From a virus (Duplodnaviria; Heunggongvirae; Uroviricota; Caudoviricetes), in IMG/VR virus record IMGVR_UViG_3300021403_000003, positions 113,952-176,865 of that record: a stretch of 62,914 nt of DNA. One strand, 5' to 3'. How positions within the stretch are numbered: position 1 is the stretch's first letter; every line of letters begins with the position of its first letter. The notes below the pieces were generated by a model. That model was not told the origin of the DNA. It ran no database searches and saw only the letters and a list, made by a program, of their open reading frames with translations. Both the position numbers and the translations under genes were made by a program. This document shows, piece by piece, positions 52,232 through 52,317 of the stretch.

Positions 52232-52317
52232 GCCGATGAAACAACGCTGTGCATTATTGTCGTTTGACAGCGGTCTCGTACGACGTCAACGAGACCCTTG
52301 GTTGATCATCGGCTCCA
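52232..52317 (+). ncRNA. CCA-ended non-cloverleaf RNA with two hairpins
   Basis: GCCGATG/CATCGGC-T-CCA acceptor; CGCTGT/ACAGCG and GTCTCGT/ACGAGAC hairpins; complementary loops GTCGT/ACGAC. Confidence 0.6.

Follow-up and report, generated by a model that had tools for sequence, protein, structure and literature searches.

A candidate accessory RNA gene with complementary hairpin loops in the tRNA operon of a T4-like phage

What kind of RNA lies between two tRNA genes when its ends close like an acceptor stem and its interior is not a cloverleaf? The stretch of DNA analysed here (the window, 62,914 nucleotides) is the final 62.9 kb of a 176,865-nt IMG/VR virus record. The phage is T4-like, with a T4-type major capsid protein, portal and large terminase, and its cultured relatives are distant (capsid <60% identical). 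One sequencing run contains the record; it is DNA from a soil metagenome, may be the source of the record, and holds no variant within the element. The run search listed no RNA run containing the element. About 40 tRNA genes are arrayed on the + strand from ~44.7 to 52.5 kb, followed by an RF-1-domain gene and a DNA ligase gene, and the element sits inside this operon between tRNA-Thr(GGU) and tRNA-Arg(ACG) (Table 1). The initial annotation placed it between two normal tRNAs with normal spacers, which is confirmed with one correction: neither default ARAGORN nor Rfam detects tRNA-Arg(ACG), which comes up only at a relaxed ARAGORN threshold. The spacers of the element (4 and 5 nt, U-rich) resemble those of the true tRNAs of the array, and U at positions −1 and −2 is the commonest leader of the array (12/33 tRNAs).

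Table 1. Parts of the element and its neighbours in the tRNA operon (window coordinates; nt, position within the element).
Feature	Position	Strand	Remarks
tRNA-Thr(GGU)	52153..52227	+	Upstream neighbour, CCA encoded; same neighbour at ortholog locus
Spacer GUUU, 4 nt	52228..52231	+	Likely RNase P leader; identical spacer in ortholog
Whole RNA gene, 86 nt	52232..52317	+	Stalk P1+P2, three-way junction, two hairpins with loops that probably kiss
P1, 8 bp, acceptor-like	52232-52239 / 52306-52313	+	nt 1-8/75-82
P2, 4 bp	52242..52245 with 52301-52304	+	nt 11-14/70-73
P3 hairpin	52246..52271	+	5 bp, invariant; 16-nt loop A 52251-52266, closing G/G mismatch (A/A in ortholog)
Putative kissing strand, loop A	52258..52263	+	nt 27-32; UGUCGU; ortholog UGUCCU
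P4 hairpin	52272..52296	+	8 bp; 9-nt loop B 52280-52288
Putative kissing strand, loop B	52280..52285	+	nt 49-54; ACGACG; ortholog AGGACA
J4/2 junction strand CUUG	52297..52300	+	Conserved; one additional C in ortholog
Discriminator U + CCA	52314..52317	+	Not conserved: A-UCA in ortholog
tRNA-Arg(ACG)	52323..52398	+	Downstream, beyond 5-nt spacer; its 5′ cleavage would free the 3′ end of the element

Several other tRNAs of the array are likewise missed by default ARAGORN, namely Thr(UGU) with U73 (44992-45065), His (47377-47453), a second Pro (46316-46393), Ser(UGA) (50546-50637), Ser(GCU) (50644-50732) and Tyr (near 45662-45740). Downstream of the array, an 82-aa ORF (52510-52758) has no family and no listed homolog, and similar-looking DNA is found at the matching place in two related contigs (L314 and L315). 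A 267,524-nt contig also carries the RF-1-domain protein (52751-53140) and the ligase (53456-54334), so the 177-kb record, although estimated to be 100% complete, may lack part of the genome. No gene for a CCA-adding enzyme (PF01743) or Ro60 (PF05731) was found in this possibly incomplete record. A putative short RNase P RNA-like element is located at 58627-58862, and 57 virus records, many of them tRNA-rich, match a pattern built on its two conserved ends.

The predicted fold of the element has a minimum free energy of −34.3 kcal/mol (z −3.85), and 0/200 shuffles fold as well. Its stem pair probabilities are 0.93-1.0, and the eight pairs examined again with both flanking tRNAs attached keep probabilities of 0.98-1.0. 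The + strand is favoured by the direction of the operon and by the fold of the ortholog described below (z −3.65 on + vs −1.18 on −). The coordinates and motifs of the initial annotation proved exact, comprising the acceptor-like stem, U-CCA and two hairpins with GUCGU (52259-63) and ACGAC (52280-84). Its picture of an interior made of two strong hairpins is partly right: both hairpins are present, but the P2 helix was missed and the first hairpin has just 5 bp under its 16-nt loop. The 4-bp P2 is set off from P1 by a 2x1 internal loop and sits between that terminal stem and the two hairpins, which makes the core a three-way junction whose linkers measure 0, 0 and 4 nt. The element resembles a canonical tRNA (RF00005) in its 7-8 bp G1:C72-type stem, its N-CCA and its normal-length U-rich spacers, but differs in having none of the D, anticodon and T arms (the last with its UUC loop stacked on the acceptor) by folding, by ARAGORN including the relaxed threshold, or by Rfam. 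No promoter or terminator of its own was found above chance.

Homology searches with the element itself recovered nothing comparable. Neither sequence of the family (the element and its ortholog) has a blastn homolog in 50,697 phage records or a credible Rfam match, while DNA patterns derived from the element (four run on IMG/VR, one on metagenomes and one on GTDB genomes) matched only coding sequence by chance or ordinary tRNAs. Virus records selected through their capsid, an ArfB-like protein or mini RNase P RNA gave no hit either, whether scanned with a one-sequence covariance model (90 records) or with a two-sequence model (79 records). Across 1.16 Mb of loci the two-sequence model added no member, and descriptor scans of 70 tRNA-rich loci yielded none. 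Since the searched collections are fragmentary, this absence of homologs is weak evidence. A literature search found no published description of the element.

After the DNA-level searches had found none, relatives were located by anchoring on neighbouring proteins. L315, an ENA farmland contig with a ligase 82% identical to that of the window, is matched by the one-sequence covariance model at 9061-9145 (53 bits, E 6e-11). The full unit there (9058-9148) is flanked by the same two tRNAs, making it a syntenic ortholog, and has the same fold. Of the 23 pairs in P2, P3, P4 and the loop-loop helix, 10 are changed in the ortholog and all still pair, seven of them through double changes; P2 contributes two double changes and one single change, and P4 four and one. 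This count leaves out P1, which was compared by hand: its C2-G is replaced by U-A and the stem is longer, giving a stalk of 14-15 bp in the ortholog vs 12 bp here. A fixed 12-bp ruler was rejected once the ortholog was known. The unpaired bases outside the loop-loop helix are identical at 14/17 positions, vs 44% at four-fold degenerate sites of the ligase (P 0.0016), and the element as a whole is 68% identical to its ortholog, compared with 67% and 62% for the orthologs of the flanking tRNAs. Sequence conservation is concentrated in the head (P3, both loops and CUUG), and the identity of P1 and the 3′ end vary.

In L314, a closer relative (ligase 87% identical), and in L320 the unit is absent, and the Thr and Arg genes are joined by a normal 5-nt spacer; L339 carries an unrelated insert in that spacer. 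With the unit either cleanly present or cleanly missing at this one Thr-Arg junction, the gene is accessory, gained or lost as a whole. A short hairpin motif is common to the Phe-Lys spacer of the window (~51213-51230) and the Thr-Arg spacer of L339 (L339:4260-4280), where it replaces the element. The tRNA array is also mosaic, its Arg(ACG) being 87% identical between L314 and L315 and only 62-64% identical to that of the present phage, which contradicts the ligase relationships. The fold, the 6-bp loop complementarity with its compensatory change, the conserved unpaired bases and the clean presence or absence all come from sequence comparison, on which footing the element is almost certainly a real, selected RNA. 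By the same comparison, it and its ortholog form an uncatalogued family of two RNAs whose loop-loop helix has the support of covariation.

The GUCGU/ACGAC match between the loops extends to 6 bp through U27.G54. In the single sequence this match is weak (p=0.08 for a Watson-Crick run of at least 5 in shuffled loops; p=0.11 by duplex energy) and not clearly above chance, so that support for loop complementarity comes only through the ortholog. There, G31-C50 is replaced by C-G (a double change) and U27.G54 by U-A (a single change), all 6/6 pairs are kept, and the duplex between loops A and B improves from −6.2 to −7.9 kcal/mol. When an equal number of loop substitutions is placed at random, 6/6 pairs are kept with a double change in 2.7% of cases (P 0.027). 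Pairing of loop A with loop B is likely on this comparison, in which the covariation of the loop-loop helix amounts to one double and one single change between two sequences only. The initial annotation had claimed complementary loop segments forming a loop-loop helix and had named homolog covariation as a check; the compensatory change agrees with the former, and the loop-loop helix and the stems indeed covary in the one syntenic ortholog. The covariation fits intramolecular and intermolecular loop pairing equally. A 3-bp hairpin within loop A competes for the same UGU, with a probability of ~0.2 here and 0.5 in the ortholog.

Among 232 distinct tRNA-array spacers, flush-adjacent hairpins with at least 5 complementary loop bases are found only in the element and its ortholog. 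Loop complementarity of at least 5 in general is not enriched (7/232 spacers vs 16/696 shuffles). Two further spacers (L315:1186-1335 and L241 minus strand 430-538) have two hairpins with loops complementary over 6 nt and are unrelated in sequence; as a class, such two-hairpin spacers show no excess over the shuffled rate.

The locus is best explained as a gene for an accessory small RNA that makes up one unit of the phage tRNA operon, although the mechanism as a whole is put forward tentatively. That the element is a discrete processed RNA is predicted with good confidence. It would be co-transcribed with the tRNAs and excised by the same machinery: RNase P would cut at G1 and again at tRNA-Arg, an exonuclease would then trim the product to the stem plus 4 nt, and the acceptor-like stem with NCCA would act as a processing and stability handle. 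Bacterial RNase P is able to cut model hairpins, with a 3′ RCCA as its anchor (PMC11143913); with its closed stem, U at −1, 4-nt tail and position in a tRNA operon, the element should be released by ordinary processing.

In the proposed structure, P3 would stack on P2 with P4 alongside P3, and the loops would pair within one molecule to form a compact head on a stalk of 12-15 bp. P3 and P4 must lie side by side for an intramolecular loop-loop helix, because the three bases from the kissing strand to the tip of P3 cannot span a 13-bp P3/P4 stack. Against this arrangement, P3 and P4 are also flush, and their coaxial stacking would by geometry hold the loops ~36 Å apart. The working part would be the head rather than the 3′ end, serving as an uncharged aptamer or decoy whose surface, similar to an elbow, would be recognised by a protein of the host or the phage. 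The head is taken as the binding surface because sequence conservation is concentrated there, and its most plausible partners would be translation factors and defence nucleases or toxins directed against tRNA or RNA.

The closest fold is the Alu domain of the Bacillus subtilis SRP RNA, in which two hairpin loops on a three-way junction form a 5-bp Watson-Crick helix that resembles the tRNA elbow (PMC4231752). Like the element, it has a loop-loop helix on a three-way junction and ends closed by a helix, and it provides a precedent for replacement of the elbow. The decoy role of the head is suggested, at the tentative level of the mechanism as a whole, by analogy with this mimicry of the tRNA elbow through Watson-Crick loop pairs. 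The Alu RNA has a UGU linker between the hairpins, a helix 5 and an S domain, while the element is stand-alone, has a 0-nt linker and no Rfam SRP match, and carries its unpaired strand, CUUG, between P4 and P2 instead; lacking the UGU linker, helix 5 and S domain, it is not an SRP Alu member. The closing helix of Alu moreover corresponds to the anticodon stem, not to the acceptor. The initial annotation had proposed an L-shaped tRNA mimic in which loop pairing replaces the elbow. The loop-loop helix and the Alu precedent speak for the kissing core, which is probably right, but the L shape is probably wrong: there is no equivalent of the anticodon arm and a linker of 4-5 nt separates P4 from the terminal stem, so that a stalk with a compact head would be simpler.

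The covariation fits equally well if loop A pairs with loop B of another molecule, hand in hand, to build dimers or rings that act as a scaffold like phi29 pRNA. The element and pRNA are both phage RNAs with paired ends, and in outline the element matches the multimerisation domain of pRNA, where a tight three-way junction carries two complementary loops (PMC4201828). With linkers of 0, 0 and 4-5 nt, P3 and P4 could stack coaxially and direct their loops away from each other. However, pRNA has been called the sole natural RNA of its type and is confined to the phi29 family (PMC4201828), where its loops pair between molecules and serve the phi29-type motor. The element lies in a tRNA operon of a phage with T4-type capsid, portal and large terminase, and its 16-nt loop A would have the length needed to reach loop B of the same molecule, provided that P3 and P4 are side by side. 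Multimerisation is unlikely on this balance.

An amino-acid acceptor is also unlikely, and slightly more so. Here the element would be an aminoacylated tRNA mimic, charged with Gly or, by sequence, more likely with Thr, that acts as an amino-acid donor or as a decoy for acceptor-stem toxins such as TacT, which reads U73 and G71 (PMC9976931). P1 and P2 together make 12 bp, the length of an acceptor/T-stem, and a 7-bp acceptor stem with N73-CCA is present. The first three pairs and U73 are shared with the phage's own tRNA-Thr(UGU), and its own tRNA-Gly(UCC) differs only by a flip at 3:70. Of 669 distinct phage tRNAs, nine have these three pairs with U73 (Thr in seven cases, Arg and Gly in one each), and seven have the full 7-bp stem together with A73 (6 Leu, 1 Tyr). 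The bacterial Gly set is U73, G1-C72, C2-G71, G3-C70, C35 and C36, and the Cys set U73, G2-C71, C3-G70 and a GCA anticodon (PMC9976931). The element carries U73, G1-C72 and C2-G71 of the former without G3-C70 (found with U73 in 34/40 phage tRNA-Gly) or the anticodon bases C35 and C36, and U73 and C3-G70 of the latter without G2-C71 or an anticodon; having C2-G71 and C3-G70, it fully matches neither set.

The ortholog weighs further against charging. It has U2-A71 in place of C2-G71, A73 in place of U73, a UCA end and a 14-15 bp stalk, although 37/39 tRNAs at its locus encode CCA. The A-UCA may reflect a recent lesion and need not mean that CCA is dispensable. Yet the discriminator and the identity pair differ as well, which makes charging unlikely as the conserved job. 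One Lactobacillus GlyRS has in addition been reported to need a whole L-shaped tRNA (PMC10464925). The resemblance to Gly and Cys identity elements seen in the initial annotation thus finds no support as a conserved function, with a 3:70 pair that is not that of Gly and a 2:71 pair that is not that of Cys, and Gly or Cys charging is probably wrong. Its description of a CCA-terminated RNA is correct for this phage, where U-CCA is encoded, and does not extend to the ortholog. Probably, then, the element is no amino-acid carrier.

Other RNAs with tRNA-like ends were encountered in these arrays. A second CCA-ended non-tRNA of the window (50446-50538) has a 7-bp closing stem, lies 8 nt upstream of tRNA-Ser(UGA), folds more weakly (−22 kcal/mol) and has loops without complementarity. 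The phage arrays L241/L252 (81 nt, before tRNA-Gly), L228 (72 nt) and L279 (102 nt) likewise contain RNAs that end in CCA and are closed by an acceptor stem but show no recognisable T loop. Outside the window, contig L173 contains a permuted tmRNA-like sequence (G000:C1:10835-11238) with an acidic tag ending in ALAA, called only by relaxed ARAGORN, which could hint at the host group.

It is improbable that the element is a new small self-cleaving ribozyme, or a cis-acting processing element for the 3′ end of the upstream tRNA. It starts 4 nt past the CCA of that tRNA, inside the ±5 nt window that defines tRNA-associated theta ribozymes, and like these HDV-like RNAs it is small and pseudoknotted (PMC10879173); conserved unpaired bases fit as well. 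Theta ribozymes, known from gut phages, have a nested HDV double pseudoknot with an internal P1 3′ strand, whereas this soil-phage RNA has a single loop-loop pseudoknot and a P1 that closes both ends in both sequences, its 5′ stem pairing with the extreme 3′ end. Its junction strands (0, 0, CUUG) lack the hammerhead core of CUGANGA and GAAA, no Rfam ribozyme matches, and the tRNA-like spacers and the 3′ tail of its own also disagree with such a role.

The antisense RNAs C4 of phage P1 and CI of phage P4 may be similar to the element in size and closed-stem layout. A trans-acting antisense RNA of this type, processed by RNase P and pairing through its loops with mRNAs, would also account for conserved single-stranded bases. 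It is a shade less probable than a ribozyme: the loop changes are accounted for by mutual pairing, and reverse-strand genome matches of loop A are no more frequent than those of a control pattern (8 vs 8).

If the element were a decayed tRNA or a neutral spacer that folds by chance, this would explain why the unit is absent from L320 and from the closest relative, L314, and why the loop match in one sequence alone reaches only p ~0.08. Such an origin is very improbable given seven compensatory double changes in the core, the lack of any cloverleaf remnant, and an element as conserved as its flanking tRNAs at a locus where four-fold sites are 44% identical. Least probable of all is an HIV-DIS-type homodimer formed through the 6-nt palindrome GACGUC of the 9-nt loop B (2+6+1 layout), since this duplex of loop B with itself, although stronger here than that of A with B (−10.5 vs −6.2 kcal/mol; p 0.016 at that register), falls to −1.5 kcal/mol in the ortholog, where the palindrome is broken while the A:B duplex improves. 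A conserved palindromic homodimer was accordingly rejected; dimers of the one sequence might still occur in vitro.

The remaining comparison is with phage T4, whose RNAC (species 1, rnaC) and RNAD (species 2) are likewise stable non-tRNA RNAs of a T4-like phage tRNA operon, of function not known (PMC3014915, PMC9697503). RNAC shares with the element a closing stem and complementary hairpin tips, UUGACG and CGUCAA as predicted from its fold. It differs in length (139 nt vs 86 nt), in loop sequences and in its canonical T arm before the 3′ stem strand, which the element does not have. The two-sequence model matches neither RNAC nor RNAD with filters off, and there is no detectable sequence similarity to the RNAC family. 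The element is not an RNAC member, because RNAC keeps the T arm and does not match the model. A second pairing in the element, UUGAC with GUCAA, had suggested homology to T4 RNAC and was rejected, as the segments are not complementary in the ortholog.

What the stable non-tRNA RNAs of phage tRNA clusters do, T4 RNAC and RNAD among them, has long been an open question. The weight of the present case is limited by two sequences and an uncultured phage. The element retains paired loops although a tRNA body is missing, and in its relative the acceptor identity is gone too, which points to the kissing head as the selected feature and away from aminoacylation or a T-loop elbow. A natural compensatory variant and natural deletion relatives provide ready controls. 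It is conceivable, if doubtful, that the pair of kissing hairpins is the autonomous working module of RNAC-like phage RNAs and the element its minimal, T-armless form. This form may be a natural RNA mimic of the elbow, by which a translation factor or a tRNA-targeting defence of the host is blocked, or it may assemble with itself, as a second natural RNA of that kind beyond the phi29 family. If so, this 86-nt, two-member family would be the simplest test system for what T4 RNAC does.
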